A DNA stretch of 64,000 bases from a virus. Below are positions 9,670 through 64,000 of the stretch, in pieces; position 1 is the stretch's first letter; every line of letters starts with the position of its first letter. A model generated the notes under the pieces. It was not told the origin of the DNA. It made no database searches and worked only from the letters and a program-made list of their open reading frames with translations. The DNA lies in IMG/VR virus record IMGVR_UViG_3300048587_000983. One strand, given 5' to 3'. Made by a program: the position numbers and the translations under genes.

Positions 9670-10083
9670 ATGAGAAGTTTCTGGGATGGCTTTGAAAAGA
9701 AGGCCAATGCGCTCGCCGCCTTCAAGGGGCTCGCCAAAAGAACGAGGCTGCCCGAGACCGCTGGTCAGGCGGAACGGGTGTTGAACTACGGGGCCATGAA
9801 GGCCGCACCGAAGCCCGCCACCAGGACGCTCGACTACGGGGCCATGAACGCCGAGAGGAGCCACGCAAGGGCCATGAAGGAGCACGATGCCGCCCGGATC
9901 AATTACTCGAGCGGGAAGCCCGTTTTGGAGGCCAAGGGGGCTCCTGTGCAGACCCCCGCTTCCCAGACGGTCGCCCCACCTCCCAGCCCTGATGCTGTGG
10001 CCATGAAGCGCATCCAGAATGCAACCAAGGGGTCAACGCCGATCACCCACTGGAATGATGCCCTAAAGGAGGGGACCCGGTAG
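9670..10083 (+). CDS. FWxGFEK-leader protein (putative internal virion protein)
   Basis: Starts MRSFWDGFEKKA; internal repeat LNYGAM/LDYGAM from 16-bp direct repeats at 9785 and 9833. Confidence 0.7.
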   Translation: MRSFWDGFEKKANALAAFKGLAKRTRLPETAGQAERVLNYGAMKAAPKPATRTLDYGAMNAERSHARAMKEHDAARINYSSGKPVLEAKGAPVQTPASQTVAPPPSPDAVAMKRIQNATKGSTPITHWNDALKEGTR

Positions 10084-30657: not shown

Positions 30658-31011
30658 TCAGCCGATTCGCATGCCCGCCTCCAGCTCCCACGGATAGATA
30701 AGCCGGATTTTCTGCTCGCAGCTGTCACAGCGGGAGGGCCGTTCCTCGATGGGAAGGGGCATGGTATCGCAGTCCTCGAAAAAATAGTTTTTGCAGACCG
30801 GGCAGTCGGCGCCCCAGGCCGAATGCTGGTGGCCTTTTCCGAAGAGGGGCTCGGCCACCACAATCCGCTCCTTTTCGGGATCGGGCTCGGTCTTTTTCGG
30901 CCTCGGCCTATAAAGGTAGCGGATGACCTCGCTGAACGTCCCAAGGCCGGCATCGTCCTTGGCGAGCAAAAGAAGGCGGAGGGCTTCGTCGTCGATAAGA
31001 ATTTCATGCAT
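30658..31011 (-). CDS. ribbon-helix-helix-like domain plus zinc ribbon
   Basis: EILIDDEALRLL..AK....TFSEVIRYL (RHH antitoxin-like) and CPVC..CDSC. Confidence 0.55.
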   Translation of the reverse strand: MHEILIDDEALRLLLLAKDDAGLGTFSEVIRYLYRPRPKKTEPDPEKERIVVAEPLFGKGHQHSAWGADCPVCKNYFFEDCDTMPLPIEERPSRCDSCEQKIRLIYPWELEAGMRIG

Positions 31012-33074: not shown

Positions 33075-33362
33075 ATGAGTTACCACGACGATCTGCCGGT
33101 TCCGTTTGGTTATGAGGTGCCTCAGTTCGTCAAACAGCTTCTTGAAAACTTTGACGTCTGTCTTTTTCAGATGCGCCTCGATCCGGATCCCGATGCGCAT
33201 CTCAGCATCATCCGAAACCTTTACGTCCACGACCTCATTGTCTCGGCAATTGTTGCCCTCAACATGCCGAAGGAAAAGGAGGCCCTCGTAAAGGAGCTCT
33301 CCCAGCAGCTTGAAATTTTATCGGCGCTCACAAACCCTATCGAGGAGGACCTGAAGAACTAA
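33075..33362 (+). CDS. hypothetical protein
   Basis: 95-aa ORF, SD AAGGA, convergent with terminase. Confidence 0.6.
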   Translation: MSYHDDLPVPFGYEVPQFVKQLLENFDVCLFQMRLDPDPDAHLSIIRNLYVHDLIVSAIVALNMPKEKEALVKELSQQLEILSALTNPIEEDLKN

Positions 33363-36300: not shown

Positions 36301-36376
36301 CGTCCGATCCCAGCTCTTCCTCGAGATCGATGTCGTCACCGATCCGCTTGTCACCGTTGTCACCGATTGTTCCCAT
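33359..36376 (-). CDS. terL: terminase large subunit (lambda GpA-like) precursor containing an intein; 611 aa after splicing
   Basis: P-loop KTARQVEK/TT, Walker B LCLDEIQD, AGTPK, VPCPHCG zinc ribbon, nuclease AGVDWG and DDYFHS. Confidence 0.92.
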   Translation of the reverse strand: MGTIGDNGDKRIGDDIDLEEELGSDAFEARMYDDKPPAVSERTVAAFRSTVNQDGTLREILKAKKSDFVRNLIYLDGHKFDFTGRGYLRPIYDGNFKRILLKTARQVEKCQTGTSLVLTRYGEEKAIRDLRPGDEIVALGENGRQTADRVIAAEFNGAKPCLRIRTRLGSTVEVTHNHPLRMLLGWRQAADLRPGDRIASLRTQGFFLEAEDPTAALLGLMIGDGSMTENCQRFTAKNPVVQDWFESLYGPCEFSIDPRSGTRNYYISKKSQIYQYFQETGIFGKRASEKTIPSKAMQLGPDSTVQLLRGLWATDGHCKNVTSSKIDLVFCTTSKTLARQVRLLLRRFGIVTTVRENRPSTGGQLAYILRVVTRDSIEAFYNKIGPIPGKPFSLPGTASNSNLDTLPSEVYDLVELARRRGGNYWKRTGLQSQGLRINRSYAPTFGKIRKINETLCDPDLADVLAADIIWDQIESIEDIGVQDTWGIETETHTYVSDFLVQHNTTFLANNLTVTSVVIPYNKALYVSPSHTQTRQFSNEKLRPAIERSPLIARYFQDSSVSTQVFEKGFTNGSYIFLRSAFRSADRTRGISARVLCLDEIQDFLTTEIPVIMECTSHFPDASNLMAGTPKSHDNPIEIYWQSTTQAEWLVPCPHCGKWNFLDEENIGPTEWYQTKRLPPGPICKKCHKPIDPSTGRWVEFYPNNMIKGFRVPQLMVPWICGLYDQWMKLLWKRDNYPYGQLANEVLGLSYDSASKPITRDEIIEACGDYSLWNLTTPEGIRAAQAEAKKWGLTAGVDWGEGNDGSEKSPSGKIRNASYTVLTIGAYVSQKHWKVFYAKRYEGREVDPDFVVKDITRICQLLGVKLIGADWGHGWGVNNVLMRTFGPNRVAQFQYMPKLKQRMKWDAIGYRYQLQRNFIMSELFFDMKHGLILFPRWKDFEPFAKDILGIYAEYNEYRREIKYDHRPSDPDDYFHSMNYAKLMSDIMTGKSRRYTLDAVALDGPQA
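34868..36049 (-). mobile_element. intein with LAGLIDADG homing endonuclease (394 aa)
   Basis: Starts Cys (CQTGTSLV), ends VQHN before Thr+1; LAGLIDADG-like LLGLMIGDGS and LLRGLWATDG; interrupts Walker A. Confidence 0.93.
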
Positions 36377-37736: not shown

Positions 37737-38060
37737 CTAGGTGTGCGCTTTGCGGAATAGCTGTTCGAGCAGAGTTGCGCCGTCTCTCCCCCCAGCCAGA
37801 CGCTCGACCTCGCGCCCGTTTTTCAAAAGCACGATCGTCGGAAACGTCGTCACATGATGTTTCTGCGGCCTGAGAGGGTCTCGCTTCACCTCGACAAGGC
37901 GAACCTTTACGCTCGGATATTTACGGGAAAGGCGTCGAACATTGCCGCGGGCCGTCTCGCTCTCGCTCTCGCCGCTATCCCAAAAAAGCATTATGACGTG
38001 CTTTTTGAACTCGACCGGAGCCGCGGTTTTCCGCTCGAAGCCTTTCCAAAAGTAGCGCAT
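37737..38060 (-). CDS. thioredoxin-fold protein lacking CxxC, with FWxGFE leader
   Basis: MRYFWKGFERKTA; VIMLFW(DSGESES), VTTFPTIVLLKNGREVERLAG. Confidence 0.8.
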   Translation of the reverse strand: MRYFWKGFERKTAAPVEFKKHVIMLFWDSGESESETARGNVRRLSRKYPSVKVRLVEVKRDPLRPQKHHVTTFPTIVLLKNGREVERLAGGRDGATLLEQLFRKAHT

Positions 38061-38068
38061 CTTCCCTC

Positions 38069-40138
38069 TCAACCCGGCGCAATTTCCTGGGCCGACCTAA
38101 GCTTTTCAAGACCGTCGACCACCTCGATCAGCCTGTGCATCGACGTGCTGGCCGCCTCCTCGGGGATCTCTTTGAGCCCGATGCGGCTGGCGAGCAAACA
38201 GCTTGCAAGGCAGGAAATTGCAGCTTTCAGTTGTGGAATCTTTCCAATGAACTTAGCAATATTGTCAGGATTTACAAAGTTTAAAGCTAAAAGAGCGTCA
38301 ACCGTCTGCGCGTTGTCGATGTAAGAGGCCTCTTTCAAGAGGTCCCGGCGCAGAAGCGCGGCCACCTTTTCAGCCTTGTCGCGCAAGGGTTTTTTCGCAG
38401 CCAGCTTCTCCGAAGCAAGAGGCGGCGACGCAAGACCGTAGACCTCTGCGCGGCCGCGAACCTTTGCCTCCTTTATAACGCTGGCAATTTTCTCCCGACC
38501 GCAGCCGAGCGAGGCCAGAAGAAAACCTGCCTTTGCCTCGGAAAGAAGCGACTGGTCCCAGCCGATGGCCTGGGCATATTTCTGTGCGCCCTTGATCGAA
38601 AACTGTCCGTAGCCGGTCGATATCACATGAAGAGGAAGACCTTTTGGATTCTCTTCGGCTTCCTTGATCGCGTAGGATTCGAGCGTATCCGACACCGGGC
38701 CAAAGCTCTGCATGGGGACCCACTTCATGTTTCTCGGAAGCGTATGGTAGCCGTTCATCTCGGGCGTGATGCGGTGAAGCTCCATGGAGCCGTTGGTCCG
38801 GAGTTTGATCGGGCGGCCCATAAGATCGGCGCAAACCATTCGGTAGCCATAGGGCTCGGCCTCGATGACCCGGATCGTGACCGGGATTGTGGCCAGAGCG
38901 TGCGAAGCGTCAGGCTGATAGACGAACGTTCCCGTCTGCCCGACCTTTGGCGTTTCGTCGGGCATCCGAAAGTTGGTGTTCTTCACACGAACACCGGCGA
39001 TGCGCGGCTGGATGGTCGACATCGTTTTGCCGACAAAGATTTTGAGGTCAACCGGCTTCATATCAAAGTCGATGACTTTTGGAATAACCCAGCCCTCAAC
39101 AGTCACACCGGTTTTTGTTTTAACCCTGAAGGAGTCGAAGGTGGTCGCCTCCTCGACTATGGTTTGATCCTCCTGAGCCAGAATCACGTTGTCCTTGCCG
39201 CTCGGAAGGAGAAGAAACTTCTCTCCGTTCTGATCGACCTCATTCATCGTGTCTTCGACGTGATCGGAAATTTTTGAGACGAGCGAGTAGCAGTCATCGC
39301 GCGAGACAGGCCCCACAAGGCTTGGCGAGAAGACCTCGTCGCTATTTGAAAGGATCGAATACTTATCCGGACTCTCGCGGCGCAGCATGACGATGCTGTT
39401 TGGAATGAGCTTATCAGCACCCTGGCGGAACTCGTTCATGTTCACGCCCTGAAGATTGGCGATCTTTTTGATAAGCTTTGCGTGACCATGCTTGTGAAAA
39501 CCCGTCAGGTACTCGGGTTTTTTATTGAAAAAATCGAGGATTTTATCCCCATCCCCGACAGTCGGCGCGATCTCATCGATGAGAGGGTAGGAGGCGGTCT
39601 TCATGCCCTCCGGGATTTTCGAGACGATCGAAAGGACCTCGCCAATCGGATCCTCTTTTGCCCGCTCGGAGGCATAGGCGTAGCGGCCAAGCGAGGGCGG
39701 GTAGATTGCATTCCAGAGGTTCGCATCCTCGAAGCGCCCGAGGCCACCGTAGGTCGGAAACTCTTCGATCTTTTGAAAAGCCCCGGTTGTCATGAAGATT
39801 TCCTGGAACATCTGCGGGGTGAGAGGTAAAAGCTTTTGTTTGGCGATCATGACATCAAGGGGATAGAGCATGAAGTCTTTGACAATGATCGGAACGACGG
39901 CTGCCTTGTCGGTCGTGTTGATGATGATGGCGCCGGTCGCAGTTCCGTTCTCTTCGTCTTTTTTCTGAAACTTGACCATGACGCTCATTTCGCTCGCCAT
40001 GGGAACGCGCTCTTTAAACTTTTGGATAATTTCCTCGGGCCACTGCTCGAGATCGTTGCCGAGATGGGTGAGGCTTACATCCTGCACATCGGGCGCGTCG
40101 ATAAAAAGGTTCGCGGGCATGGTCATAGCTGTCTCCAA
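38069..40138 (-). CDS. large putative head/core protein rich in K-x-A motifs
   Basis: 689-aa ORF in the structural module, SD GGAG; KTAS, KYAQ, KIAS, KLAA, KVAA, KEAS. Confidence 0.8.
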   Translation of the reverse strand: METAMTMPANLFIDAPDVQDVSLTHLGNDLEQWPEEIIQKFKERVPMASEMSVMVKFQKKDEENGTATGAIIINTTDKAAVVPIIVKDFMLYPLDVMIAKQKLLPLTPQMFQEIFMTTGAFQKIEEFPTYGGLGRFEDANLWNAIYPPSLGRYAYASERAKEDPIGEVLSIVSKIPEGMKTASYPLIDEIAPTVGDGDKILDFFNKKPEYLTGFHKHGHAKLIKKIANLQGVNMNEFRQGADKLIPNSIVMLRRESPDKYSILSNSDEVFSPSLVGPVSRDDCYSLVSKISDHVEDTMNEVDQNGEKFLLLPSGKDNVILAQEDQTIVEEATTFDSFRVKTKTGVTVEGWVIPKVIDFDMKPVDLKIFVGKTMSTIQPRIAGVRVKNTNFRMPDETPKVGQTGTFVYQPDASHALATIPVTIRVIEAEPYGYRMVCADLMGRPIKLRTNGSMELHRITPEMNGYHTLPRNMKWVPMQSFGPVSDTLESYAIKEAEENPKGLPLHVISTGYGQFSIKGAQKYAQAIGWDQSLLSEAKAGFLLASLGCGREKIASVIKEAKVRGRAEVYGLASPPLASEKLAAKKPLRDKAEKVAALLRRDLLKEASYIDNAQTVDALLALNFVNPDNIAKFIGKIPQLKAAISCLASCLLASRIGLKEIPEEAASTSMHRLIEVVDGLEKLRSAQEIAPG

Positions 40139-43296: not shown

Positions 43297-43479
43297 ATGA
43301 ACGGTCTGACGACTGGCCTCCCTATTTTTCTGCGGCGCTTTCTTTGCCGCTTTCTCCCTCATTCCGACAGAAGGCTGGGCCCGGATCGAAACGAGCTGTG
43401 GGCAGACGGCGATCTGTCCCCCAGCACGGAAGTCTGCATCTGCAGGCGGTGTCTCAGAGTGAAGCGGAAACCTGCCTAG
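43297..43479 (+). CDS. small Cys-containing protein
   Basis: SD AAGGAGG; CICRRC. Confidence 0.55.
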   Translation: MNGLTTGLPIFLRRFLCRFLPHSDRRLGPDRNELWADGDLSPSTEVCICRRCLRVKRKPA

Positions 43480-43661
43480 CCCCTTCTTTTTTCAAAGCCT
43501 CGCCAGAAAGCTTTTTTCTCTTCGTGATCTTCATGGAGACCGACCTTGGCTTCGAGCTTTTGCTCTTTCGGGCTTTCCGCAGCTTCCTGCTCCTTTGATT
43601 CCCGCCGCTCATGGCTCAGAAGGAGCGCTTTCAGATCTTTCTTCGACACATCGTCTCTCAT
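43476..43661 (-). CDS. small charged protein with C-terminal FWxGFEKR motif
   Basis: ATGA overlap with the SNF2 stop; ends AFWRGFEKRRG. Confidence 0.65.
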   Translation of the reverse strand: MRDDVSKKDLKALLLSHERRESKEQEAAESPKEQKLEAKVGLHEDHEEKKAFWRGFEKRRG

Positions 43662-45088
43662 GGCTTTTCGCTTCCTTTTTCACGGAGAATATTCAAAAAC
43701 TGGTCGTTCAGAGCATCCTTTTGCGCCGAGAGCATGTCGAGGTACTCATCCACACCAGAGTCCGCTTTCCTGCGTAAAACTCTCTGCAGGAAGGTTTTTG
43801 GAACGGTCGAATGGAACTTCTGAACATGGACATTCCTCTCTTCCGGCGGAAGGTGCTCATGGCTTTTAAAGCGGACGCCCCGGCCCTCAGCCTGCTCCAG
43901 CCGTGAGGTGTTCCAGTGCGGTTCCAAAAGCTGCATCAATTTTGTGCCTTTGAGGTCCAGGCCTTGAGCGCCTGCGCCAGAGATGAGGAGGGCCTTTGCT
44001 CGTCCGGCATTATAATCCTCCACCGCTTGCTTTCGTTTCGCATCAGAGAGTGTCCCGTCAAATACAGCGTGTGGAACACCAAGATTGGCAAGATGTCGCG
44101 CATATTCCTTCACTCCGGAATCGAGGTAGTTTGAGTAGACGACCGCCTTGAAGTTAGGGTCTTTTTGCATACGTTTTTGGAACTCGTCGATCGCCCGCTG
44201 AATTTTTGGAGAAGTCTCCGTTCCCCCAAACCCTCTCGTGCTATTTGATATTTGCCGCGGTCCGGAAAGGAAGGAATTGAGCGACTTGCTCTCCTGTTTG
44301 TTTGGCGGCAAGCCTCGACGAATCTTATAACGAAGCCCAGGACCTGCCTTGTCGAGGACGAAGTCGTAATATTTCATCTGCTCGGCATTCATCGGGACCT
44401 GGATCGTCTCGCGGCTCACAGCGGGAAAGTTCTCCCGCGCCGGCGCGTGATAGTCCACATAGCCCTTCACGAGATCAGCGAAGCGCTCGGGGTTTTTGAT
44501 TTTGTACTCGACCCCTGGTTTTGCCCCATGAAAGATTCGGGCCAGGAGTCCGGGGCTTTTCATGACCTCTGCTATGAAGGCCTTGTCGAAGGCCTTGGGG
44601 TCGGACGGTATTTTCGTATCGCCACGCACCATGGCCATAAGAGGGCCGATCTCGTGCGGGTAGTTGCGGATAGGAGTGCCTGTGAGAAGAATCCGCTTGT
44701 CGTAATCGCGCGCCTTTTGAATCATCTCCTGAGTCCGCTTGCTGTCGGTGCGACCGAGCATGTGGGCCTCATCGACCACAAGAGCGTGGCCCGTAGGTGG
44801 CGTCTTCACGGCCTTTTCGTAGCTCATGATGTTCGGCTTGTGGCCAGTCGTATGCTTTTGTACCTCTTTCGCATAGTTCTGACGAAGAGCCGCTGGTACA
44901 ACGACATCGGTTTCGTCACCTTGCGTCGCGGCCAGGGAGGTGAGCGTCTTGCCGCTTCCAAGGCCGTGATAGACAAGAACGCCCGGCTTTTTACCGAGCC
45001 TTTGCTGAACGCGGATCTGCTGCGGCTCCAGCTTGGTTGTGGTTTTTAGTTTGGCTCTCTTCTCAAAACCCAGCCAGAAGCTGTGCAT
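43658..45088 (-). CDS. SNF2/SWI2-like superfamily 2 helicase/translocase with FWxGFEK leader (476 aa)
   Basis: HGLGSGKT, VVDEAH, LTGTP, GAQGLDL, EPHWN..EQAEGRGVR; SD GGAGGAG before ATG 45088. Confidence 0.92.
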   Translation of the reverse strand: MHSFWLGFEKRAKLKTTTKLEPQQIRVQQRLGKKPGVLVYHGLGSGKTLTSLAATQGDETDVVVPAALRQNYAKEVQKHTTGHKPNIMSYEKAVKTPPTGHALVVDEAHMLGRTDSKRTQEMIQKARDYDKRILLTGTPIRNYPHEIGPLMAMVRGDTKIPSDPKAFDKAFIAEVMKSPGLLARIFHGAKPGVEYKIKNPERFADLVKGYVDYHAPARENFPAVSRETIQVPMNAEQMKYYDFVLDKAGPGLRYKIRRGLPPNKQESKSLNSFLSGPRQISNSTRGFGGTETSPKIQRAIDEFQKRMQKDPNFKAVVYSNYLDSGVKEYARHLANLGVPHAVFDGTLSDAKRKQAVEDYNAGRAKALLISGAGAQGLDLKGTKLMQLLEPHWNTSRLEQAEGRGVRFKSHEHLPPEERNVHVQKFHSTVPKTFLQRVLRRKADSGVDEYLDMLSAQKDALNDQFLNILREKGSEKP

Positions 45089-45110: not shown

Positions 45111-45491
45111 TCAAATGGTGCCAAGCATAAGCTCTTCGTCTTCGCCCGTTCGCGCAAGATAGCGGAGGTATTCCTTCTGTTCTTTTGGAGGCATGGCGAG
45201 AACTCTTTTGGCTTCCTCGATACCCCGCTTCTGGGCGATCGCCCTAAGGACCCCGGCCAGCCCGCCGACAGCCAAGCCGGCCGCACCTCCGGCAAAAGCC
45301 CCAGGGACAGCGCGGTCCGCGGCACCGAAAAGAGCCCCCGTAACCCCGCCTAAACCAGCTCCGACGAGACCTCCTTTTAGTTTCGACAGCGGTTTTTTCT
45401 GCGCTGATTCTTCGAGCTCTTTTTTAAGAACACGAGCCTCGTAATCGTAGTCGTAAGCCCGCTTTTCAAAGCCGTTCCAAAATGCATGCAT
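45111..45491 (-). CDS. glycine-zipper membrane protein with FWxGFEK leader
   Basis: MHAFWNGFEKRA; GGLVGAGLGGVTGALFG and GAFAGGAAGLAVGGLAG; TGATG coupling to the RNAP gene. Confidence 0.8.
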   Translation of the reverse strand: MHAFWNGFEKRAYDYDYEARVLKKELEESAQKKPLSKLKGGLVGAGLGGVTGALFGAADRAVPGAFAGGAAGLAVGGLAGVLRAIAQKRGIEEAKRVLAMPPKEQKEYLRYLARTGEDEELMLGTI

Positions 45492-52507: not shown

Positions 52508-52701
52508 GTCACCACCAGCTCCAAGTGATCCTGAATCGAGGTGATGCGCCCTGTGTCCGGGTCCATCTCCCGATTCGATATTTTTTCCTTGATGCGGTCG
52601 AGGATCTGCGCGTTTGGGTTATTCAGGATCGCCTCGTACTCTGCGCAGTCCTCTTTGTCATTGAGGTTGAACCGCTTTACAAATTTTCTTGTCGTATACA
52701 T
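52483..52701 (-). CDS. hypothetical protein
   Basis: 72-aa ORF, TAATG coupling to the portal gene. Confidence 0.65.
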   Translation of the reverse strand: MYTTRKFVKRFNLNDKEDCAEYEAILNNPNAQILDRIKEKISNREMDPDTGRITSIQDHLELVVTWQERTLL

Positions 52702-54731
52702 TAAACCGCTCCCTGCCGCCGCGGAACCTTCTGCTCAGGCAAAGGGTCCATGCCTACGCCGCCACCACTGGGCGCTGGCGTGGGAGAGCCTGCACCACCT
52801 TGCATCGGCGCGGCTTCGCCCGAGCCCTCAGCGCGCAGCTGATTGAGACGGGTTTCGATACGCTGACCAACCTCGGGCATTTTTTGTTTCACCTCGGAGA
52901 GCGTAAGGGCGGCTTCACCGGGCGAAAGGCTCATCAACTGGCGAGCCCAGGAATCGACTTTCGAGTCGATTTGCTGACCAAGAGCCTTGTCTTCCTTGCC
53001 GCCGGCAGCCGCTCCACCTGCTGTGCCCGGCAGGCCTTGAGCCGTAGCAGCGCCGGGTGCGCCCCCTCCAGCTCCGCCTCCAGGGCCGGCAGGTCCGCCT
53101 GCAGAGGGGTCACCGCCGCCGGGTGCATTTGGATCAGTTGGCTGATCGAGGGGACCAGGAATCCCAAGCCTCTGAGCCCGCTCCTGTGCAGCCACCTGGG
53201 CCTTCTCGGAAAGCTCCTGAAGTGTCTGCTGATAATTAAACTGAATGAGCGAGGCCTCACCCTGCGAGCGTGCACCTGATTTGCTTTGTAGATCCATGAT
53301 GTAGTTCTGGACATGCTGCTCTTCGATAAGTTTTTTGGTTTCCGACTCGTAGTCGTAGCCGAGTTCTGTGAGAAGAGTTTGGTCGCTGATCTTCCGCTGA
53401 GCGTTAAGCCCGATGAGCTGCTGATTCCTTTGAATATCGTCAGCCATACGAAAGTCGGAGAACCGGATATCCTTTACGTCAGAGAGGTTGAGCCATGTGC
53501 GCAGCTTGTCTTTCAGCCAAAGAGTAAAATCAAGAAGCTGGCTTCTATTCTGGATAAAGTCGTTCTCGAGCGTCCGAAGCGAAACGCTCGACCCTGTCCA
53601 GTTGAGACCACCAAAGAGGAACTCCTGCGGAAGCCCGAGCCCACCGACAACTGTCTGCGTGATGTAGTTGATTTCAGGCGCGAGGAGGAGCGCTTTTCCG
53701 TCACCACCAAGTCGCCCAAAGCCAATCGGGATAGGGATAACACCTTTGAAGTTGGGATCGCGGCGGTGCTTTGTGATGACGTTTTCAACCTGCTGCCGCC
53801 AGCTGGCAAGGTCCGTATGAATGTAGGGGTCCTGCTGCGCGTTTGGAAGCGGGTAGATCATATCGAAGGGGACGATATGCTCCATCGCAATCGCTTCCTG
53901 CGCACGCCTGAGGGTATAGAGGTAATACATATCCTTCAGGACGTGGATGATTGCAGGCTTGCCCCAGCCCTGGTCCTGCTCAGCCAGTGTCGGAGCTTTC
54001 AGGTGTTTGATGTTATCTGAGTTGAAGCGAATCATCCGGCGGTTTTTAAGAGCTTCAAGGACGATGATGGGAATGTCCTCGATGATGTCCTTGTCGCCGC
54101 GAAGGATGGCATTACGAAGCTTTCCGGGCACCGAGTACATATAGATGTAGCGGCCCGTATATTCGTTGAACTTGATGTGGATATTTTCAGGGTTCCAGCG
54201 GACTATCCGGATCCCTTTTCTACTTCGATAAGGGACGTCTTTTACGGTCACCTGCCCCGTGTGGTTGCAGCGTGAACAGGTCCCCGAGAACTGATAGTCG
54301 GCCCCGCGAAACGTCCAGTCCCATTGGCGAATAGGCTGGCTGTTGCGACATTCCTTACAGACGAGAAACCGCGTGAAAGGGAAGTGGATACTGACGAACG
54401 CGTTGCCGTAAGTATGGTAGTCGAGGTTAATCTCCATGAGCTTGTCTTTGATGAAAAGCTCTTTGTTGAGAATCTTGTCCCAGACGTTACGGTTGCTCTC
54501 CTGGTCGTCCTCGATGATAAGGTCTGTGATCGGGTACCGCGAAACCTTCTTCATCGCAGCCCCGATGAGGGGGCTGTTGTAGTAGTAGTAGGTGCACCAG
54601 CGGAAAAGCTCCTTGATCGTCGGCGGCATGTACTGCTGCGCGAGGTCAAAGAACTGGTTTGGATACCGCTGGCCCCTCATGTCTCCGAGGGCAAGCGAGG
54701 GCTCGGCCAGGCGTTCCTGTGGGTTGGTCAT
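52701..54731 (-). CDS. portal protein (putative) with zinc-ribbon insertion and Gly/Pro-rich tail
   Basis: Y.NSPLIG, YHTYGNAF, GLPQEFLFGG, ISDQTLL.ELG; CKEC..CSRC insertion; structural module context. Confidence 0.75.
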   Translation of the reverse strand: MTNPQERLAEPSLALGDMRGQRYPNQFFDLAQQYMPPTIKELFRWCTYYYYNSPLIGAAMKKVSRYPITDLIIEDDQESNRNVWDKILNKELFIKDKLMEINLDYHTYGNAFVSIHFPFTRFLVCKECRNSQPIRQWDWTFRGADYQFSGTCSRCNHTGQVTVKDVPYRSRKGIRIVRWNPENIHIKFNEYTGRYIYMYSVPGKLRNAILRGDKDIIEDIPIIVLEALKNRRMIRFNSDNIKHLKAPTLAEQDQGWGKPAIIHVLKDMYYLYTLRRAQEAIAMEHIVPFDMIYPLPNAQQDPYIHTDLASWRQQVENVITKHRRDPNFKGVIPIPIGFGRLGGDGKALLLAPEINYITQTVVGGLGLPQEFLFGGLNWTGSSVSLRTLENDFIQNRSQLLDFTLWLKDKLRTWLNLSDVKDIRFSDFRMADDIQRNQQLIGLNAQRKISDQTLLTELGYDYESETKKLIEEQHVQNYIMDLQSKSGARSQGEASLIQFNYQQTLQELSEKAQVAAQERAQRLGIPGPLDQPTDPNAPGGGDPSAGGPAGPGGGAGGGAPGAATAQGLPGTAGGAAAGGKEDKALGQQIDSKVDSWARQLMSLSPGEAALTLSEVKQKMPEVGQRIETRLNQLRAEGSGEAAPMQGGAGSPTPAPSGGGVGMDPLPEQKVPRRQGAV

Positions 54732-55986: not shown

Positions 55987-58900
55987 TCACCCCACAGTTA
56001 TGAAAGCGGAGCGCCCGGAGATGTCGGTCGCGCCATCATTGATAAGCATCTCGATATAGTAGCTTCGATCCGCGGCGGGCGGGACGAACGGCATGCTGAA
56101 GGCGAAGACGCCGTCTGCATTCGGCGAGGCGAGGTTCGCCTCCCAAAGAAGAGCGCCTTCGGTGCTCTTGACCTTGATGCGTGCATTGCTCGCCGAAAGG
56201 AAGGGTGCTCCGTTCTTTTCAAGCCAGACTATGACTTCCTGCGTTTCATCGCTGGAGTTCAGCGTCGTGGACATCCTGCAGAAGGCGGTGTTGATCGTGA
56301 TTTCCTCAACATCCTCTTTCGTTGCAAGGTCTGAGATATCAGGCCCGAAGCTCTGAGGATCCTGCGTAATCGTCCGGCTCGGGTAGGTCCAGATTTCGGC
56401 TGCAGTAGCGCCCCCGCCCCCGCCACCGCACACGTTGTCGATCTCGCTTAGGATATTCGCCTCGACCGTCGAAAGCTGCGAGCCTGTTGCAGGGTCGCTT
56501 GTGATCTGATCGGTTTTGGCCTTCACAAGATTCACCGTCGCCTGGAGCGTATTGAGCTTGGCTTCGTTCTGATTGATCTCGGAGGTCAAAGCCGTTTGAG
56601 TGCTCGACAGCTGGGCCGTAGTGGCCAGAGGGGCGAGGTCCGCGGCCTGTACCGTGCCTCTTGTCGATACCGCGACGTCGAGCCTTGTAAGACGCACATC
56701 GCTGGCCAGGACCGGATTTGTCGGACGCGCGAGAACGCTCGTCTCCTTCGCCGGATCTGGCGGGAGGTTGTCTGTCTTGGACTTGATGCCGGTGGCCTTG
56801 AGGTCGAGGTTGGCGATGGCTATCGACTGAGCCGAGAAGCCGCCTGTCACAACGGAAGCGGAAACCGGATCGGACGGCAGGTTGGTCGTTTTCGCCTGGA
56901 TGGCGGATACGTCGGCCTGCATCGCATTGACGAGAATCTGCGTCTGATTGTCACCCGAGGTGATGAGTCCTGCCAGCGAGCTCACGGTGGACTCCTGAGC
57001 CACACCGGCGAGAGCGGAAGCGACCTGTGAAGCCGTTGCGCGGGTCGAGACCTGGGCATCGAGCATGTCGGCCACACGTTTGCCGAGAGAGCCGTTTACG
57101 GTCGCCTGCGAAGCCAGATGATCCCAGATGGCCTTGACCGAGGCCGCGGGCAAGCTGAAGCTCGTCAGCTCGCGCGTGCCGTAACTCCAGACGCTGGCGG
57201 CGTCGAGGATCGAGCGGCTCGAAATCGTTGCGTCGAGGTTGTTGAGCCGCGGGTCGTTGGTCTTCATGATAGGCGTAAAGTCGATCTTGTCGTAGATCGC
57301 CGTGTTGTTGCGGTTGTCAGGACCAACGATGTAGTCCCGCGTCAGGTCGAGACGGGTCTGAATCTCATTGATGTCAGGGCGCGTCAACACAGTGGCGTTG
57401 ACAGCCGAGACCGAGGCCAGCGTTGCCGGATCGTTCGGTATCAGATCGGTCCGGGCCTTGATGTTGATGAGAAGCAGCTCGTTGGCGTCAATTTCGCCGA
57501 TGATCTGGCTTTGGCCTGTTTTGATGGCTGCAAGCCCGTACACTCCGGAGTTCACGGCGAGGTTTGTGTTGGTGACGGTGCCTTGAACACTTGTCAGCTG
57601 GGCCTGAATCGAGTTGAGATCGCTCTCAAACTCTGTGATTTCAGTGACCGCCGGTACATAGCGCGTTGCCCCGTTCTCGATCACGGTCGCCTCAACGAGA
57701 GCCTGATATTCGTCCGTTCCCGAGGTTATGCTAAAATTATAGTAGTAAGCCCCCACTTTGACTCCGTCGGGCGTCATCGCAGCTCCCGCCACGATGTCGA
57801 TGCCTGTGTCGAGTCTACGTATCCTTATTGTGGGGGTGCTATCCGGGGCCTCAGCGTGCCCCGTCTCATCATAGAGCCGCAGGTGGAACTGGTAGGTTTT
57901 GGTTCCACTCGTCGGCTTCACCAGCCTCTCAGGAACAATAAACCGCACCGTTGTATTGTTTTGAATCGTCCCGATCTGGGCGGCGACGGCGTCGACCTTT
58001 GTTTCGACGACATTGATTTCGCCTATGATGCTCGACTCGGCGGCGGTCAGCTGCGTGGCCAGAGCCTCGATCAAAATCTGATTCTGATCAATCTCGCTTT
58101 TCAGCAGAGCTGTCTGCGAGCCGACGTAAGGTATGATGGCGTCGATCTTCGTCTCGTTCCCGTTGACCTCTGCTATGACAGCCAGTTCACTGTCGCCGAT
58201 CGCGCCGAAAATCTGCGACAGACCGTAGGTGGGGCTGTTGAGCTCGGCCAGGGTCGAGAGCGCGGATTGCCGGATGACCTGGACATAGTTGCCGAAGGTG
58301 TTCGGAAGGTTGTGTGGTGCGACAAGAGCGTCCCATACCGCAGCGGCGATTCCGGTTGGGGTCGAAGCTGTAAGGCTGCCGAGAGCCTCCCCCGTTGATC
58401 CAGGCGATGTGTGAGCAGAGAGCAGCTCATCCCATACTTCATCAACCACAGCGGCTCTGGATGCTGACGACAACGCGTAGTCCGTCTTATCCGAGACGAC
58501 CTGCGCATTCGCGTTGACATTGGAACCGGTGAAGGTCAGCTGATCGGTTTTGACTTTGATTGCGGTGACGTCGGCCGCTGTGGAGTCCGCGACGGCTTTA
58601 ACCGCAGCGATATCAGCAGAGACGGTCGAGACCGGCGTCCCAATCTTCGTTTGAATGTCATCCGTATCGGCCTGCACACCGGCAATATCGGAGGTCAAAT
58701 CGTTGAACCTTGTGAGCGCATCGGACTCAGCCTGCCGAGTGGAGACATCAACATCGAGCCGCTTGCCAAAGCTCCCTGCTGCTGTGTGACCAGCCTGGAG
58801 CTCATCCCAAACGGCATCGACCAGCTGGGCCTCGGCCGCCGGAGAGAGAACGACACCGCTCGTCCCCGTATCATCGAGAATCGCTGCAGTGTCCGCTTTC

Positions 58901-61212
58901 ACAGCGGCGACATCAGCACTGAGCGAGGCGCCGACAGGGGTCCCGATTTTTGAATTGATGGTATCGGCAGTGGATTTGACCGCCGCAATGTCGCCCGCCA
59001 GTGTCGTGACAGGGGTTCCGATTTTGGATTGAATGTCATCCGTGTCAGATTGGATGGAGGCCGTCTCAGCTTTCACAGCTGCGATATCACCAGCAAGCGT
59101 GGAGGCAGGTGAACCGATCTTCGATTGGATATCGTCCGTGTCTGACTGCACGCCTGCAATGTCACCGGCAAGAGTTGAAACCGGCGTCCCAATTTTGGAT
59201 TGAATGTCATTCGTATCTGTCTGGATCGACGCCGTCTCGGCTTTTACAGCTGCGATATCCGCGCTTACCGAGGCGCCGGCTGGCGTTCCAAGCTTTGTCT
59301 GTACCGCTGCAATGTCACCGGCCAGAGTTGTGACCGGCGAACCTATTTTTGACTGAATGTCATCGGTGTCAGCCTGTACGCCTGCGATATCGCCAGCGAG
59401 GGTCGATACGGGCGACCCGATCTTCGCCTGGATGTCATCCGTGTCTGCTTGAAGCGCGTTGTATTGAGAAAGCGCAGTCGCAGACGACTGCCTGGAGCTA
59501 ACCGTTGTATCGAGGTTCGGGAGGTTATCAAGATAACCCGCGCGAGTCGCCGTGAGACGGGAAAGGAGAGTATCGAGTTTCGTTTCAAACTCTTGAACTT
59601 CCGTTGTCCGGACTTGCTGGAATGGGACGGAGTTTTCCGCGTATTCCATGAAGACAACAAGCGGGCGCTCGGGGTCCGTTGAGTTCACAGTGTATGGGTA
59701 TTCATAAGCTCCGACAGCCGTCCTTGTCATAGGGGTTGTTGCCACAACCACTGAGCCGCCAGGGGTCTCGATTCGGATGTTGATCGTGTTGGAGTCCGGA
59801 TCCTCGGGGCTTCCGGCATCATCGTAAAGCCGCCCGAAGAATTTATAGACCTGACTTCCAGAGGTCGGAAGAATGAGAGGCGACTGGACAACCATTGCAA
59901 AGCGCGTGTTGTTTTGAATCGCATCGACCGAGGCCTGCGTGGCCCGGGAGCTGACTGTCGCATCGAGATTCGGCAGATTGTCGAGGTAGCCTGCGCGCGT
60001 AGCCGTGAGGCGGCTCGTAAGGGTTGAGGTATCCGACTTCACGGCTGCAATGTCGACGCTCACCGAGGCGCCCGCCGGGGTGCCTAGTTTTGTCTGGACA
60101 GCTGCGATATCGCCGGAAATCGTGGATACCGGCGAGCCGATTTTAGCCTGGATGTCATCCGTATCAGCCTGCACGGCAGCTATGTCGCCGGCTAGGGTCG
60201 TGACAGGCGTTCCTATTTTGGACTGGATGTCGTTGGTATCGGATTGGATTGATGCCGTTTCCGCTTTAACGGCTGCAATATCAGCACTAACTGAGGCGCC
60301 AGCCGGTGTACCGATCTTCGATTGAATGTCGTCAGTATCGGCCTGCACACCCGCGATGTCGCCAGCGAGAGTCGTGACAGGCGTACCGATCTTCGATTGA
60401 ATGTCGTTTGTATCGGATTGAATCGAGGCAGTCTCTGCTTTGACTGCAGCGATGTCCGCGCTTACCGAAGCCCCAGCGGGAGTGCCTATCTTCGATTGGA
60501 TATCGTCCGTATCGGCCTGAACGCCCGCGATGTCCGACGCCAGTGTGCCCACGGGCGCCCCGATTCTCGCCTGAATGTCGTTGGTGTCAGACTGCACGCC
60601 TGCGATATCACCGGCAAGAGTTGAAACCGGAGTTCCGATTTTTGCCTGGATATCGTTTGTATCTGCCTGGATCGAGGCCGTCTCGGCTTTTATAGCGGCG
60701 ATGTCCACACTCACCGAAGCCCCAGCGGGAGTGCCTATTTTGGATTGTATATCGTTGGTGTCGGCCTGTACGCCTGCGATATCACCGGCAAGAGTTGAAA
60801 CCGGAGTTCCGATTTTAGCCTGAATGTCGTTGGTGTCGGCCTGAACGCTCGCAATGTCACCGGCGATGGTCGAGACCGGCACCCCGAGTCTTGTCAGAAG
60901 AGTGGCCAGATCCTGATCGATGGAGCGGACCTCGATCTCTTCATCATCCCACTCATAGGCGCGGTCTGCTGTTGCAAACCCAACCGTGGTATAGATTTCG
61001 TAGGACACTGAATACTGACCTTCGACTGTCGGGTTCCACCCGCTCCCCGAATAGTGGCCGCTTCCCCTGTGGGTGAGGGTGAACGGCGAGCCCGACACCT
61101 CAGTGCCGGCGGAATTGAAAACCCTGGCACGAACACCTTTCGTGGTATTCCCGTCCCAGAGGGTTTTACAGAGGAGGACGTTGCTATTTACCTCAGCCGT
61201 TCTTCCTGCCAT
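55987..61212 (-). CDS. giant segmented coiled-coil fibre protein (1741 aa)
   Basis: Tandem DIAGVQADTDDIQSKIGTP repeats, AVWD/EVWD repeats, about four Ig-like globular domains. Confidence 0.85.
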   Translation of the reverse strand: MAGRTAEVNSNVLLCKTLWDGNTTKGVRARVFNSAGTEVSGSPFTLTHRGSGHYSGSGWNPTVEGQYSVSYEIYTTVGFATADRAYEWDDEEIEVRSIDQDLATLLTRLGVPVSTIAGDIASVQADTNDIQAKIGTPVSTLAGDIAGVQADTNDIQSKIGTPAGASVSVDIAAIKAETASIQADTNDIQAKIGTPVSTLAGDIAGVQSDTNDIQARIGAPVGTLASDIAGVQADTDDIQSKIGTPAGASVSADIAAVKAETASIQSDTNDIQSKIGTPVTTLAGDIAGVQADTDDIQSKIGTPAGASVSADIAAVKAETASIQSDTNDIQSKIGTPVTTLAGDIAAVQADTDDIQAKIGSPVSTISGDIAAVQTKLGTPAGASVSVDIAAVKSDTSTLTSRLTATRAGYLDNLPNLDATVSSRATQASVDAIQNNTRFAMVVQSPLILPTSGSQVYKFFGRLYDDAGSPEDPDSNTINIRIETPGGSVVVATTPMTRTAVGAYEYPYTVNSTDPERPLVVFMEYAENSVPFQQVRTTEVQEFETKLDTLLSRLTATRAGYLDNLPNLDTTVSSRQSSATALSQYNALQADTDDIQAKIGSPVSTLAGDIAGVQADTDDIQSKIGSPVTTLAGDIAAVQTKLGTPAGASVSADIAAVKAETASIQTDTNDIQSKIGTPVSTLAGDIAGVQSDTDDIQSKIGSPASTLAGDIAAVKAETASIQSDTDDIQSKIGTPVTTLAGDIAAVKSTADTINSKIGTPVGASLSADVAAVKADTAAILDDTGTSGVVLSPAAEAQLVDAVWDELQAGHTAAGSFGKRLDVDVSTRQAESDALTRFNDLTSDIAGVQADTDDIQTKIGTPVSTVSADIAAVKAVADSTAADVTAIKVKTDQLTFTGSNVNANAQVVSDKTDYALSSASRAAVVDEVWDELLSAHTSPGSTGEALGSLTASTPTGIAAAVWDALVAPHNLPNTFGNYVQVIRQSALSTLAELNSPTYGLSQIFGAIGDSELAVIAEVNGNETKIDAIIPYVGSQTALLKSEIDQNQILIEALATQLTAAESSIIGEINVVETKVDAVAAQIGTIQNNTTVRFIVPERLVKPTSGTKTYQFHLRLYDETGHAEAPDSTPTIRIRRLDTGIDIVAGAAMTPDGVKVGAYYYNFSITSGTDEYQALVEATVIENGATRYVPAVTEITEFESDLNSIQAQLTSVQGTVTNTNLAVNSGVYGLAAIKTGQSQIIGEIDANELLLINIKARTDLIPNDPATLASVSAVNATVLTRPDINEIQTRLDLTRDYIVGPDNRNNTAIYDKIDFTPIMKTNDPRLNNLDATISSRSILDAASVWSYGTRELTSFSLPAASVKAIWDHLASQATVNGSLGKRVADMLDAQVSTRATASQVASALAGVAQESTVSSLAGLITSGDNQTQILVNAMQADVSAIQAKTTNLPSDPVSASVVTGGFSAQSIAIANLDLKATGIKSKTDNLPPDPAKETSVLARPTNPVLASDVRLTRLDVAVSTRGTVQAADLAPLATTAQLSSTQTALTSEINQNEAKLNTLQATVNLVKAKTDQITSDPATGSQLSTVEANILSEIDNVCGGGGGGATAAEIWTYPSRTITQDPQSFGPDISDLATKEDVEEITINTAFCRMSTTLNSSDETQEVIVWLEKNGAPFLSASNARIKVKSTEGALLWEANLASPNADGVFAFSMPFVPPAADRSYYIEMLINDGATDISGRSAFITVG
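58880..60890 (-). repeat. two arrays of 18-32-aa coding repeats within the fibre gene (approximate limits)
   Basis: 11 + 7 units ending in [KR][IL]G[TSAV]P, separated by an Ig-like domain; synonymous codons differ between units. Confidence 0.85.
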
Positions 61213-61216
61213 TTTT

Positions 61217-61684
61217 TTACCTCAGCCTTATAAGCTCCATTAGAAGCATCGTACCGAATGTCCGGACGGTTTGAGTCAGTCCGCCTTCGAGCTTTAAAAT
61301 ACGCAGCTCGATATAATCGTTCGCATTCAGATCGAGAACAAACGTCCTGGATGCGTCGCCCCCCGGCTCGTTTGCGCTGGCCCGGGAGTTGCCGCCCGCG
61401 CGACTCCGCTCGATCACGCTCGTCCCGTTGAGATAGCAGTGGACTTCAAAGCCGTCATCGTTCGCCGTCGAGTCGAGGTTCACCCCGTAGCTCACGCGAA
61501 CAGTGCAGTCCCGCAGCGCTCTGAACTGGCTGGTCGTGGGCTTGTCAAGGAGCCCGTTTGGATAACTGCCTTGATCCGTCGCAAGAGCGACGATTGCCGT
61601 CGTACCCGCCCCACCAGCAATATTCTGGGCAGCCGCGTTCGAGTATTGAAGATATGCATCAGGTCTACCCTGCCTTGCGCTCAC
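61217..61684 (-). CDS. C1q/TNF-like jelly-roll domain protein, paralog 1
   Basis: YLQY...ATDQGS..DKPTTSQFR..VRVSYG..LDLNANDYIEL; GTGA overlap start. Confidence 0.65.
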   Translation of the reverse strand: MSARQGRPDAYLQYSNAAAQNIAGGAGTTAIVALATDQGSYPNGLLDKPTTSQFRALRDCTVRVSYGVNLDSTANDDGFEVHCYLNGTSVIERSRAGGNSRASANEPGGDASRTFVLDLNANDYIELRILKLEGGLTQTVRTFGTMLLMELIRLR

Positions 61685-62139
61685 GGTCGCCTCACAAATT
61701 CCATCAGGAAGCAAGATCCCTCTGCCAGGGCTGTAACGTCATCACCACCCTCCAATGACAGCAGGTTCAGCTCCAGATAGTCGTTCACCGCCATATCCAG
61801 ACGGATCGTTCTTTTCACACTGACGGGCTCCAGCGCTGTGTCACGAGCGCTTCGTCCTGAATTACCAAAGGTCAGGGCCGCGCCGTTTTTTAAAATCTGA
61901 ACTTCTGCGCCGCGGTTGTTCGCATCGCCTGTGAGCACGAGACCGTAGCTTACGCGCACACTGCAGGCAACCAGCGTCCGAAAGCGTGCCGTCGTTGGTT
62001 TGTCGAAGAGCCCGTCAGCGAAACTTCCTTCGTCCGTCGCAAAGTTTAGAATGACGTTGGAAGGCCCGGCGGCAGCGGTCTGCGGGGCAGCCATACGGTA
62101 CTGAAGCCAAGCTCGTTCCTGCGCCTGCCCTGCACCCAT
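61681..62139 (-). CDS. C1q/TNF-like jelly-roll domain protein, paralog 2
   Basis: WLQY...ATDEGS..DKPTTARFR..VRVSYG..LDMAVNDYLEL. Confidence 0.65.
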   Translation of the reverse strand: MGAGQAQERAWLQYRMAAPQTAAAGPSNVILNFATDEGSFADGLFDKPTTARFRTLVACSVRVSYGLVLTGDANNRGAEVQILKNGAALTFGNSGRSARDTALEPVSVKRTIRLDMAVNDYLELNLLSLEGGDDVTALAEGSCFLMEFVRRP

Positions 62140-62140
62140 C

Positions 62141-62434
62141 TTACACCACCGGTTTTACACGTTTGGCTATCTCATAAGACTTGTCAGTAAGAGAGCCGGC
62201 CCCCGTGTAGTTGTCTGCGAACCCCTTCAGGGCAGACTGGAGGGCTCGGAGAGCGTTTCTTTCCGTCGCAGCCTCACCGCCTCCCAGAATCTCTTCAATG
62301 TCGGCGTCGAGATACTGTGAAAGAACCTGATCAATACCCTTGATCTCCTGCACAAGATCGTGCGTTCTGAAACAGATCCTTTGCATAAGGTTAATGAGCT
62401 CGTCACGGGTCATCGGCGTTGCAAAAATAGCCAT
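62141..62434 (-). CDS. hypothetical virion-module protein
   Basis: 97-aa helical ORF, TAATG coupling. Confidence 0.7.
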   Translation of the reverse strand: MAIFATPMTRDELINLMQRICFRTHDLVQEIKGIDQVLSQYLDADIEEILGGGEAATERNALRALQSALKGFADNYTGAGSLTDKSYEIAKRVKPVV

Positions 62435-63198
62435 TAGAGTTCCTTTCCAAAATGATCGGCCACATACTGCTCAATTTCCTTGAGCCTGGCCTTTTGAATA
62501 AGATAGTCGGCGCCTCCGGTGTCCTCGCCCTTCATCACCGCCGCCGCGAGTGCGGTGTCGTTTCCCATGCGGTCGAGGAAACCCTGGCAACCGGCTGTGA
62601 ACACAGCCTCCGGGAGGGCAACAAGGCCCGCGTTGCGCGCCGACGCGGCGAGGTAGGCGCAGATCTCCGAGTCAAACTCCTGCTTCGGTCTAATCGTCCG
62701 CAGGAGCTTCAGCGTCAGTGCAGCCTCCTCAATCTCAAGAGGCTGAACAATCCCGAAATTAACGGGATTGAAGTTGAACGCGTGGCCCACCTTTTCAAAA
62801 ATGTGCCAGTTCTCAAAGGGCTGATTGGTCGTCACCGTAAGCTGCAGAGCGGAGATGAGGTTTCTAAGGTCCTCGTCCGGGTCTATGCCGTGGGATTTTT
62901 GAAGCGTGGTCCAAACCGTCTCAGGCTCCCACTGCCACCACTCTCGTCCGTAGTGCTCGTTAAGGATTCCATATATGCCGAGAACCGTGACGCCGGCTTC
63001 CTTGTCGAACAGGGCTTTCATGGTCACGCCCGAGACGAGTGCTTTTCCTAGCGCCTTGTGCGGGTCCTGAATCGAGTTCACGACGCTTTTGAAGGTTCTC
63101 AGTTTGGAGAGGTCGCGCTTCTTCTCCTCGCTCGCCGATTCGTCAGCGATCTTCTCCATGAAGTCGAGCGTATTCTTGTCAAAGCGTCCCATCACCAA
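62434..63198 (-). CDS. hypothetical virion-module protein
   Basis: 254-aa ORF with W..WEPET motif; start 63198 or 63192. Confidence 0.75.
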   Translation of the reverse strand: MVMGRFDKNTLDFMEKIADESASEEKKRDLSKLRTFKSVVNSIQDPHKALGKALVSGVTMKALFDKEAGVTVLGIYGILNEHYGREWWQWEPETVWTTLQKSHGIDPDEDLRNLISALQLTVTTNQPFENWHIFEKVGHAFNFNPVNFGIVQPLEIEEAALTLKLLRTIRPKQEFDSEICAYLAASARNAGLVALPEAVFTAGCQGFLDRMGNDTALAAAVMKGEDTGGADYLIQKARLKEIEQYVADHFGKEL

Positions 63199-64000
63199 AG
63201 CTCACAATAATTTCTTTTGCGTCCATCGGAAGACTATCGAAGATCGCAACCGGATCCTTCTTCATCTCCTCGGCTATTGTGCGGCCAAAATACTCGGCGA
63301 TCTTGTCGAAGCGGCTTCCGACTATGGAGCGAAGCTCCTCGTGGGTGAGCTCGCGCGAGCTTGCGAGTTTGATCCTGTAACCCGTGTAGGGGTCGGCCTG
63401 CCTGCCAAAGGTCGCAAGAAAAGGATCTGTCAGCGCCCCACCGTAGTAACGGTTGAGCTTTGCTGTCTTATCGAAGGCATGCAGGACCTGGGCGAAGTGC
63501 GAAGGTGTGAGGGAGCGTTTCATACCCGCGATTTTTTCGAGGCGCCCCCGCTGCTCGTTGTTCGATTGAAGCAGGTTCATACGGGCCGCAATATGCGCAT
63601 CCACATGCGGGCTGTAATGGTCGGATGCGTACTTGGCAACCGTGCCTCCCTGCAGCCCCAGACCGAACTCCTGCGAGCGCCTTTGAATCTGGGCGGCGTA
63701 TTTATGCCGAAGGTCCAGCGGTATTTTTTCGTGCTGCGCCTCAAAGAACGCGCATGCAACCTTGAGGTGGTCAGGCGTGGCGAAGGCATACTGCGCCTCG
63801 GTGTAGCTCTCCGCGATATCGCTCACGGCAGCTATCTTTGAGAGATCGGGCTGCACAGTGCTTGCCACCTTGCTCAGCCCCCGGCTCTCGCAGAAGACGT
63901 TGGTGGACGACTCCTGGGCCAGTTTCTCGACGGCCGGCGAGGGTTCAATCCGAAACTTCCGACAGGCCTTTTTCAGATGCCAGGCGGCGATCTTTTGAGC
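63179..64000 (-). CDS. K-x-A-rich putative head protein (5'-partial)
   Basis: Frame stays open from 63868 to the window edge (AQKIAAWHLKKAC...); 12 K-x-A motifs in 273 aa. Confidence 0.8.
   Translation of the reverse strand, partial: AQKIAAWHLKKACRKFRIEPSPAVEKLAQESSTNVFCESRGLSKVASTVQPDLSKIAAVSDIAESYTEAQYAFATPDHLKVACAFFEAQHEKIPLDLRHKYAAQIQRRSQEFGLGLQGGTVAKYASDHYSPHVDAHIAARMNLLQSNNEQRGRLEKIAGMKRSLTPSHFAQVLHAFDKTAKLNRYYGGALTDPFLATFGRQADPYTGYRIKLASSRELTHEELRSIVGSRFDKIAEYFGRTIAEEMKKDPVAIFDSLPMDAKEIIVSFGDGTL

Follow-up and report, generated by a model that had tools for sequence, protein, structure and literature searches.

K-x-A motifs in a conserved protein of large uncultured phages: possible cleavage sites of a head-maturation protease

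The viral DNA analysed here (IMG/VR record IMGVR_UViG_3300048587_000983; 64,000 nucleotides, referred to as the window) ends within the gene of a protein, designated X, in which lysine is followed two positions downstream by alanine (K-x-A) far more often than expected. We consider it about an even chance (probability roughly 0.5) that these motifs are cleavage sites of the clade's head-maturation protease and that protein X is a processed core or internal protein. The X family is conserved across a very large phage clade; its members, mostly uncultured and of roughly 150-185 kb, are relatives of Salmonella phage Arash, of Vibrio phages D69, D148 and D181 and, more distantly, of Bacillus phage G. 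The N-terminal 86 codons of the gene lie beyond the end of the window, and the full-length sequence was taken from P0001, which is 100% identical over the visible part.

63179..64000, minus strand: C-terminal 273 codons (residues 87-359) of the K-x-A-rich protein X, an open reading frame (ORF) running off the window end

In the 273 visible residues of this 359-amino-acid (aa) protein, 12 of the 20 lysines have alanine at +2 (KIAA twice, KKAC, KLAQ, KVAS, KVAC, KYAA, KYAS, KIAG, KTAK, KLAS and KIAE). Full-length P0001 has 14 K-x-A among 27 lysines. The visible part contains 20 lysines (7.3%) and 35 alanines (12.8%), and when its residues were shuffled, K-x-A occurred 2.55 times on average (standard deviation 1.44) and none of 100,000 shuffles reached 12. 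An earlier sequence-only reading had listed the same 12 of 20 lysines with their tetrapeptides and had estimated about 13% alanine and 2-3 expected motifs; the recount was identical, and both estimates agree with the figures above. To correct for the post-hoc choice of this pair, all residue pairs at gaps 1-5 were scanned (1620 tests). K..A at gap 2 was the clear top pair (Poisson 7.9e-6, about 0.013 after Bonferroni correction), and the runner-up pair had a value of 4e-4. Internal repeats were rejected as the source of the enrichment because the one detectable duplication in P0001 (residues 60-106 against 156-202, hhalign 92%) explains at most one pair of sites. The sequence-only reading had named a helical repeat fold as the alternative to processing; large repeats are ruled out as the source by this result, and a structural motif that is not processed is retained as a rival below.

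The motif is a property of the whole family. A word-index search returned 70 homologues of P0001, nearly all of 357-366 aa, and an exhaustive search gave 723 representatives at E <= 1e-3 (the family has more than 700 representatives at 50% identity). In an alignment of 66 homologues with 27-85% identity, 10 of the 14 sites are each retained as K..A by more than 80% of the sequences, and lysine is almost never replaced by arginine at the conserved sites. Among 149 diverse representatives K-x-A was observed 1569 times against 477 expected (3.3-fold), with more than 2-fold enrichment in 97% of them, and the control patterns were flat: 1.11 for R-x-A, 0.81 for K-x-G, 0.70 for K-x-S, 0.84 for the reversed A-x-K and 0.7-1.2 for K..A at other gaps. 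Outside the 13 best-conserved columns K-x-A was still enriched 2.3-fold, a figure that depends on a very gappy alignment. This enrichment suggests that sites have been gained and lost and would favour selection on the number of motifs.

It could be argued that the motif is a chance or compositional artefact of a helical protein rich in alanine and lysine, in which the pair was picked after the fact. The shuffles, the pair scan, which survived correction over 1620 tests, the retention of the motif in hundreds of homologues and the flat reversed, shifted, Arg, Gly and Ser controls refute this explanation, to which we give almost no weight. The K-x-A enrichment of protein X is not due to chance, to composition or to large internal repeats.

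The AlphaFold2 (AF2) model of P0001 is mostly helical with few strands and has a predicted local distance difference test score (pLDDT) of 82.8 and a predicted template modelling score (pTM) of 0.44; residues 121-140 are weak. In family members a variable linker, up to about 330 aa long, joins an N domain (about residues 1-118) to a C domain (about residues 142-357). The sites visible in the window are as follows, all on the minus strand, with conservation as K..A in the family.

63986..63994, minus strand: K89-I-A (AQKIAA), mid-helix, K..A in 41% of the family
63965..63973, minus strand: K96-K-A (HLKKAC), mid-helix, 94% conserved
63917..63925, minus strand: K112-L-A (VEKLAQ), C-terminus of a helix ahead of the variable linker, 38% conserved
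63863..63871, minus strand: K130-V-A (LSKVAS), low-confidence linker, 12% conserved
63830..63838, minus strand: K141-I-A (LSKIAA), helix end, 85% conserved
63755..63763, minus strand: K166-V-A (HLKVAC), mid-helix within a DUF6582-like unit, 86% conserved
63695..63703, minus strand: K186-Y-A (RHKYAA), mid-helix, 83% conserved
63626..63634, minus strand: K209-Y-A (VAKYAS), helix end, 98% conserved
63527..63535, minus strand: K242-I-A (LEKIAG), mid-helix, K in 98% and A or G in 98%, retained in a remote Arash homologue
63461..63469, minus strand: K264-T-A (FDKTAK), helix end, 98% conserved, retained in the Arash homologue
63362..63370, minus strand: K297-L-A (RIKLAS), strand end preceding a loop, 82% conserved, retained in the Arash homologue
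63296..63304, minus strand: K319-I-A (FDKIAE), mid-helix, 20% conserved as K..A

Eight of the 14 sites (K22, K53, K112, K130, K141, K209, K264 and K297) lie in loops of the model or where a helix or strand ends, and these would be the likeliest places for a cut.

Few other proteins are enriched in the motif. The sequence-only reading had proposed computing observed and expected K-x-A for every protein; this was done for the window ORFs and for a complete 152-kb relative whose X protein is 47% identical, and few proteins proved to be enriched. In the window they are only protein X (12 observed, 2.6 expected) and a 689-aa ORF (12 observed, 4.6 expected). The genome total of the 152-kb relative is at expectation (288 observed, 268 expected); X is the most enriched of its 184 ORFs (15 observed, 4.9 expected), followed by ORFs of the head block. 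In Arash (gp220, gp222, gp223 and gp225), D69 (0268, 0270, 0271 and 0273) and phage G (gp19 and gp21) the enriched genes are all located between the portal/TerS genes and the capsid gene. Arash gp220 and D69 0268 were considered as homologues of X and rejected (hhalign below 1%). The 689-aa ORF of the window is syntenic with the Arash virion protein gp218, with a weak similarity through the homologue in the 152-kb relative, and is likely to be another head-internal substrate.

38069..40138, minus strand: K-x-A-enriched ORF of 689 aa; nine of its 12 sites cluster in residues 490-640

The flanks of the motif are also shared. Around the lysine, the extended motif has a hydrophobic residue at -2, an acidic residue or Val at -1 and S/A/G at +3, and it is not found at the K-x-A of background proteins. 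A hydrophobic residue is present at -2 in 59% of the sites in the X family and 80% of those in head-block proteins against 28% in the background, and S/A/G at +3 in 59% and 57% against 27%. Moreover, four proteins of the window begin with a short leader that ends in K-x-A.

45044..45079, minus strand: leader FWLGFEKRA at the N-terminus of an SNF2-type ATPase
45447..45482, minus strand: leader FWNGFEKRA at the N-terminus of a small ORF
38016..38051, minus strand: leader FWKGFERKTA at the N-terminus of a 111-aa ORF
9679..9714, plus strand: leader FWDGFEKKA at the N-terminus of a 138-aa ORF

A further copy of the FWxGFEK tag stands at the C-terminus of a small ORF (...FWRGFEKRRG followed by the stop codon; window 43473-43508, minus strand) and, unlike the N-terminal copies, lacks the alanine. 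In the 152-kb relative at least five consecutive small ORFs carry FWxGF-type leaders (L026:15639-19535, 115.6-119.5 kb), namely FFLGFIKRA, FLKGFEKRA, FIKGFENRA, FWEGFEKKA and FWKGFRKHV.

The sequence-only reading had called for the prohead protease of the clade to be found, and a candidate is now located in relatives of the window; its gene is not within the 64 kb. Arash gp222, phage G gp19 and a 613-aa metagenomic protein of a 175-kb relative form one family. Its proteins are about 610 aa long (within a range of 470-650 aa), or 1025 aa with an intein, and end in an extended helical region. In the AF2 model of the 613-aa member, residues 45-225 make up a beta-rich core whose best match is T4 gp21 (5jbl; Z 9.9, root-mean-square deviation 2.8, 129 residues aligned). 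The next matches are seven herpesvirus proteases at Z 6-9 (from varicella-zoster virus (VZV), pseudorabies virus (PrV), herpes simplex virus, human cytomegalovirus (HCMV), Kaposi's sarcoma-associated herpesvirus and Epstein-Barr virus), with MCE-domain proteins at Z about 7 as unrelated background. His100/His101 and Ser152 are invariant in the family. Its conserved K-x-A at 29, 222, 277 and 575 flank the core, and three of them are in segments with pLDDT below 50. Only the fold comparison recognised the protease: a Pfam Peptidase_S77 search in five relatives and a phmmer search of Arash gp222 against the PDB found nothing, and Foldseek alone on the 613-aa model was not significant. This modelled structure indicates that the clade encodes a protein of the T4 gp21/herpesvirus assemblin fold, a candidate prohead protease. 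In some relatives, among them the 152-kb one, the gene is split by an intein of about 365 aa (L026:2152-5229; L029 and L033), the query aligning in two parts, 1-157 and 523-899, with weak matches to PI-SceI/VMA; elsewhere in the clade the gene is continuous and encodes about 613 aa.

A processed capsid protein in phage G provides an anchor for the proposed cut. N-terminal sequencing showed that the phage G capsid protein is shortened from 282 residues (31.2 kDa) to 255 residues (28.2 kDa) in the mature form (PMC5646251, Table 1). By mass calculation, both masses are reproduced only by a cut after Ala27 (RVALA before the cut, Q after it). In a four-way capsid alignment Gly22 and Ala27 are invariant, and Ala27 of phage G aligns with the alanine of GL-x-K-x-A in the capsid proteins of Arash, D69 and a metagenomic phage. 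Thus, at the homologous site of a distant relative, P1 has been measured and is alanine.

From these observations the following sequence of events can be proposed. The prohead protease of the clade, of gp21/assemblin fold, would recognise [hydrophobic]-x-Lys-x-Ala-[Ser/Ala/Gly] and cut after the alanine of K-x-A. Protein X would enter the prohead as one of its core or internal proteins and would be cut at several sites while the head matures. A more detailed version, with P1 Ala and P3 Lys as the specificity of a very large, almost wholly uncultured clade (Arash-, D69- and phage-G-like genomes of about 150-500 kb) and with X as its most densely marked, portal-adjacent core substrate cut to peptides of about 24 residues, is tentative, and we lean slightly against it. 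Such a specificity would be new, undescribed for any phage. The claim of the sequence-only reading that the clade protease recognises K-x-A gains indirect support from the restricted enrichment, its location in the head genes of Arash, D69 and phage G, the shared flanks, the gp21 fold and the Ala27 cut of phage G.

Several observations weigh against cleavage of protein X, and some of them fit a structural role of the motif. Protein X is well conserved with a locally confident model (pLDDT 83), and its two distinct domains with short strands do not suggest a coiled-coil scaffold, although the mostly helical model, its pTM of 0.44 and the lack of a PDB match would suit an elongated scaffolding protein. 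Six of the 14 sites are mid-helix in confidently predicted segments. In the variable linkers of longer members K-x-A occurs 58 times against 45 expected (1.3-fold, near chance); the enrichment therefore falls on fixed positions of the folded domains, the distribution expected of a structural motif. The gene is outside the head block: in the 152-kb relative some 41 kb separate it from the genes of the protease and the major capsid protein, next to which a classical scaffolding gene would lie, and in 14 related loci it stands upstream of the portal gene among fibre-like genes. Protein X also has no FWxGF leader: P0001 begins with MIKLSNQVLD, a different conserved N-terminal peptide, and its first K-x-A follows at 22-24. 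The phage G capsid site is A-L-A, with alanine in place of lysine at P3, and so is not K-x-A, and a search of the phage literature found no report of a measured K-x-A cleavage. Finally, the virion-packaged RNA polymerase does not avoid the motif (13 observed, 14.5 expected). The gene location, the two-domain architecture, the linkers and the mid-helix sites count against the second claim of the sequence-only reading, by which X would be a scaffold or core that is dissected.

The main rival explanation is a helix-end and packing motif of a two-domain fold, with the lysine near the C-terminus of a helix and the small residues serving as cap and packing face. Protein X would then act as an assembly factor of the tail, the fibres or the vicinity of the portal, out of reach of the head protease. 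In addition to the fixed positions in the N and C domains, half of the sites end a helix exactly at the alanine, HLKVAC lies in the DUF6582-like unit that is duplicated within protein X, and the neighbouring genes encode fibre-like proteins and the portal. However, arginine hardly replaces the lysine, and Gly or Ser rarely replaces the alanine, which is unusual for a purely structural role. Head-block proteins unrelated to X, the leader tags and the surroundings of the protease core also carry the extended motif, no other helical protein of the window or of the 152-kb relative is enriched in it, and K-x-A is enriched at non-conserved family positions as well. We therefore regard a purely structural motif as unlikely, but as the alternative that deserves most attention.

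The virion proteome of phage Arash bears on both cleavage and a third explanation. A tblastn search of protein X against 50,697 phage records gave no match even at E = 10, and profile searches (A1 and A2) of the Arash, D69 and phage G genomes found nothing. A remote Arash homologue at 174466-175335 was recovered by hhalign alone (84%, E 7e-6) and keeps three K-x-A sites of the C domain. It is annotated as a structural protein after virion mass spectrometry and is on the proteome list (PMC10585845), with 359 or 550 spectra depending on the gene numbering of that paper, in which the numbers around gp241-243 are shifted by one relative to GenBank. The listed coverage of 100% for proteins with 2 unique peptides is implausible as sequence coverage (Table 2 and Supplement 2 of the same paper). 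Two further points belong with those weighed above: the list holds 116 proteins, including ribonucleotide reductase and ligases, and is too permissive to assign any protein to the head (PMC10585845), and the candidate homologue follows baseplate/PAAR genes.

It is also conceivable that K-x-A is read without being cut, as a docking site for the scaffold, the inner surface of the capsid or the protease, or as a site of lysine modification or crosslinking, with protein X remaining intact. The abundance of the Arash candidate in the virion would fit this explanation, the occurrence of the extended motif in unrelated proteins suggests that a single partner reads it, and the many helical sites may be poor protease substrates. 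On the other hand, the motif position coincides with the mapped capsid cut in phage G, and the motif ends N-terminal leaders and, within flexible linkers, stands on either side of the protease core, an arrangement known from the cleavage sites of T4. Nothing was found that indicates a lysine-modifying enzyme or crosslink chemistry. Recognition without cleavage thus appears improbable.

Database comparisons gave little information on what protein X is. Neither X nor its four downstream neighbours matched Pfam or PHROG, and PHROGs gave scattered single matches only over 119 family members. A profile search of PDB sequences with the X family returned nothing, Foldseek of the P0001 model against the PDB returned nothing with E below 0.3, and the wide VIA fold search was at noise level (best Z 6.1, on helical bundles). 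The BFVD matches to the model were two uncharacterised phage proteins only. DUF6582 (PF20223) was matched by 29 of the 119 members at E <= 0.1 (best 2.6e-6), below the gathering score, in a region equivalent to residues about 140-185 that includes the HLKVAC site; the match examined scored 17.8 bits, where the cut-off is 27.3. A DUF6582 cluster was also among the results of the Atlas feature search. P0001 itself has no DUF6582 match, and no checked family match was above the Pfam gathering score. DUF6582 is an uncharacterised domain of phages and bacteria without known function and explains nothing about protein X.

The gene order around X is conserved. Two neighbours in the window are relevant.

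62434..63198, minus strand: 254-aa gene c2, whose start overlaps the end of X and which follows X in 12 of 14 related loci
52701..54731, minus strand: portal gene, 31% identical to the Arash portal gp204

In the 14 related loci the order is c3 (about 150 aa), c0 (about 200 aa), X, c2 (about 250 aa), variable fibre-like genes, c0 (279 aa) and portal. X is two genes from the portal in compact genomes, and one locus has four tail-collar fibre genes upstream of X. On the map of the complete 152-kb relative, X lies at 57.9 kb and the portal gene at 61 kb, and the genes of the protease-like protein and the capsid protein lie at 102 kb and 108.6 kb, respectively. Family and fold searches gave no lead for c2, for which an Atlas score of about 0.8 is noise. 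The window portal is 31% identical to the portals of Arash and of D69/D148/D181, and 23% identical to that of phage G; that the window is phage Arash itself was rejected on this portal identity.

Other genes of the window have features of their own. A 1741-aa fibre-like protein (55987-61212, minus strand) is built of repeats of about 24 aa (...DIAGVQADTNDIQSKIGTP...) and has no K-x-A against 7.8 expected, every lysine of the repeats being in K-I-G. Its N-terminal domain is common to the 201-aa and 279-aa c0 genes that flank X and the portal. Two adjacent paralogous small proteins of 165 and 152 aa (61217-61714 and 61681-62139, minus strand) are almost free of lysine, have no family match and are flanked by a 97-aa gene and the giant fibre gene. 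An intein with a LAGLIDADG domain is present in the large terminase (1005 aa; 33359-36376, minus strand): Pfam matches to Intein_splicing, Hint and LAGLIDADG_3 lie at about 104-503, and the GpA_ATPase domain follows. A 437-aa ORF (29694-31007, minus strand) has a weak HicA-toxin-like segment at about 150-205 (PHROG 353, 1e-8); its Pfam HicA_toxin match of 25.6 bits is below the cut-off.

If cutting after the alanine of K-x-A is the rule of this clade, mature ends, propeptides and head cargo would be predictable from sequence in hundreds of uncultured large phages as well as in Arash, D69 and phage G. A widespread orphan family and the FWxGFEKxA leaders would also acquire a function, and the leaders might serve as packaging tags. 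If the motif is structural, the finding shrinks to an odd but ordinary conserved helical protein.

Phage T4 offers the closest comparison. The T4 prohead protease gp21 (MEROPS S77, 5jbl) cleaves gp22, gp67, gp68, IPI-III, Alt and gp23 at (L/I)-x-Glu sites; the capsid-targeting leader of T4 ends in the cut motif, and gp22 is cut many times. As in T4, a short signal of tripeptide type is concentrated in head-assembly proteins of the clade, where it ends leaders on unrelated cargo, flanks the protease core and marks the N-terminal propeptide of the capsid protein, and the protease-like protein has the gp21 fold. Helical protein X, with a site about every 24 residues, resembles gp22. The systems differ in that the clade signal is hydrophobic-x-Lys-x-Ala, with the cut probably after the alanine, and that the clade protease, of 470-650 aa, ends in an extended helical region and contains an intein in some genomes. 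Furthermore, the X gene lies apart from the protease and capsid genes, and neither sequence nor fold relates X, a candidate substrate, to gp22 or the internal proteins (IPs).

The prohead proteases gp175 of phiKZ and gp245 of SPN3US cut at (S/A/G)-x-Glu sites, as measured by mass spectrometry (PMC5694885, PMC10052503). These phages would resemble the clade as large myoviruses in which many head proteins are processed at a simple motif and an RNA polymerase is packaged in the virion. Their P1 Glu is measured, whereas P1 Ala and P3 Lys of the clade are predicted.

Herpesvirus assemblins cut (V/L/I)-x-Ala before Ser, and their substrates have two sites. They share the fold of the clade enzyme at Z 6-9 (VZV 1vzv, PrV 4v07, HCMV 1njt), and their P1 Ala and P1' Ser/Ala match the A-[S/A/G] junction at which the clade enzyme would cut. 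However, P3 is hydrophobic in herpesviruses, whereas the clade would have Lys at P3 and a hydrophobic residue at P5, and the two sites of a herpesvirus substrate contrast with fourteen in X. If the K-x-A cut is real, the specificities of phage and herpesvirus assemblins would be linked, because both would cut after Ala.

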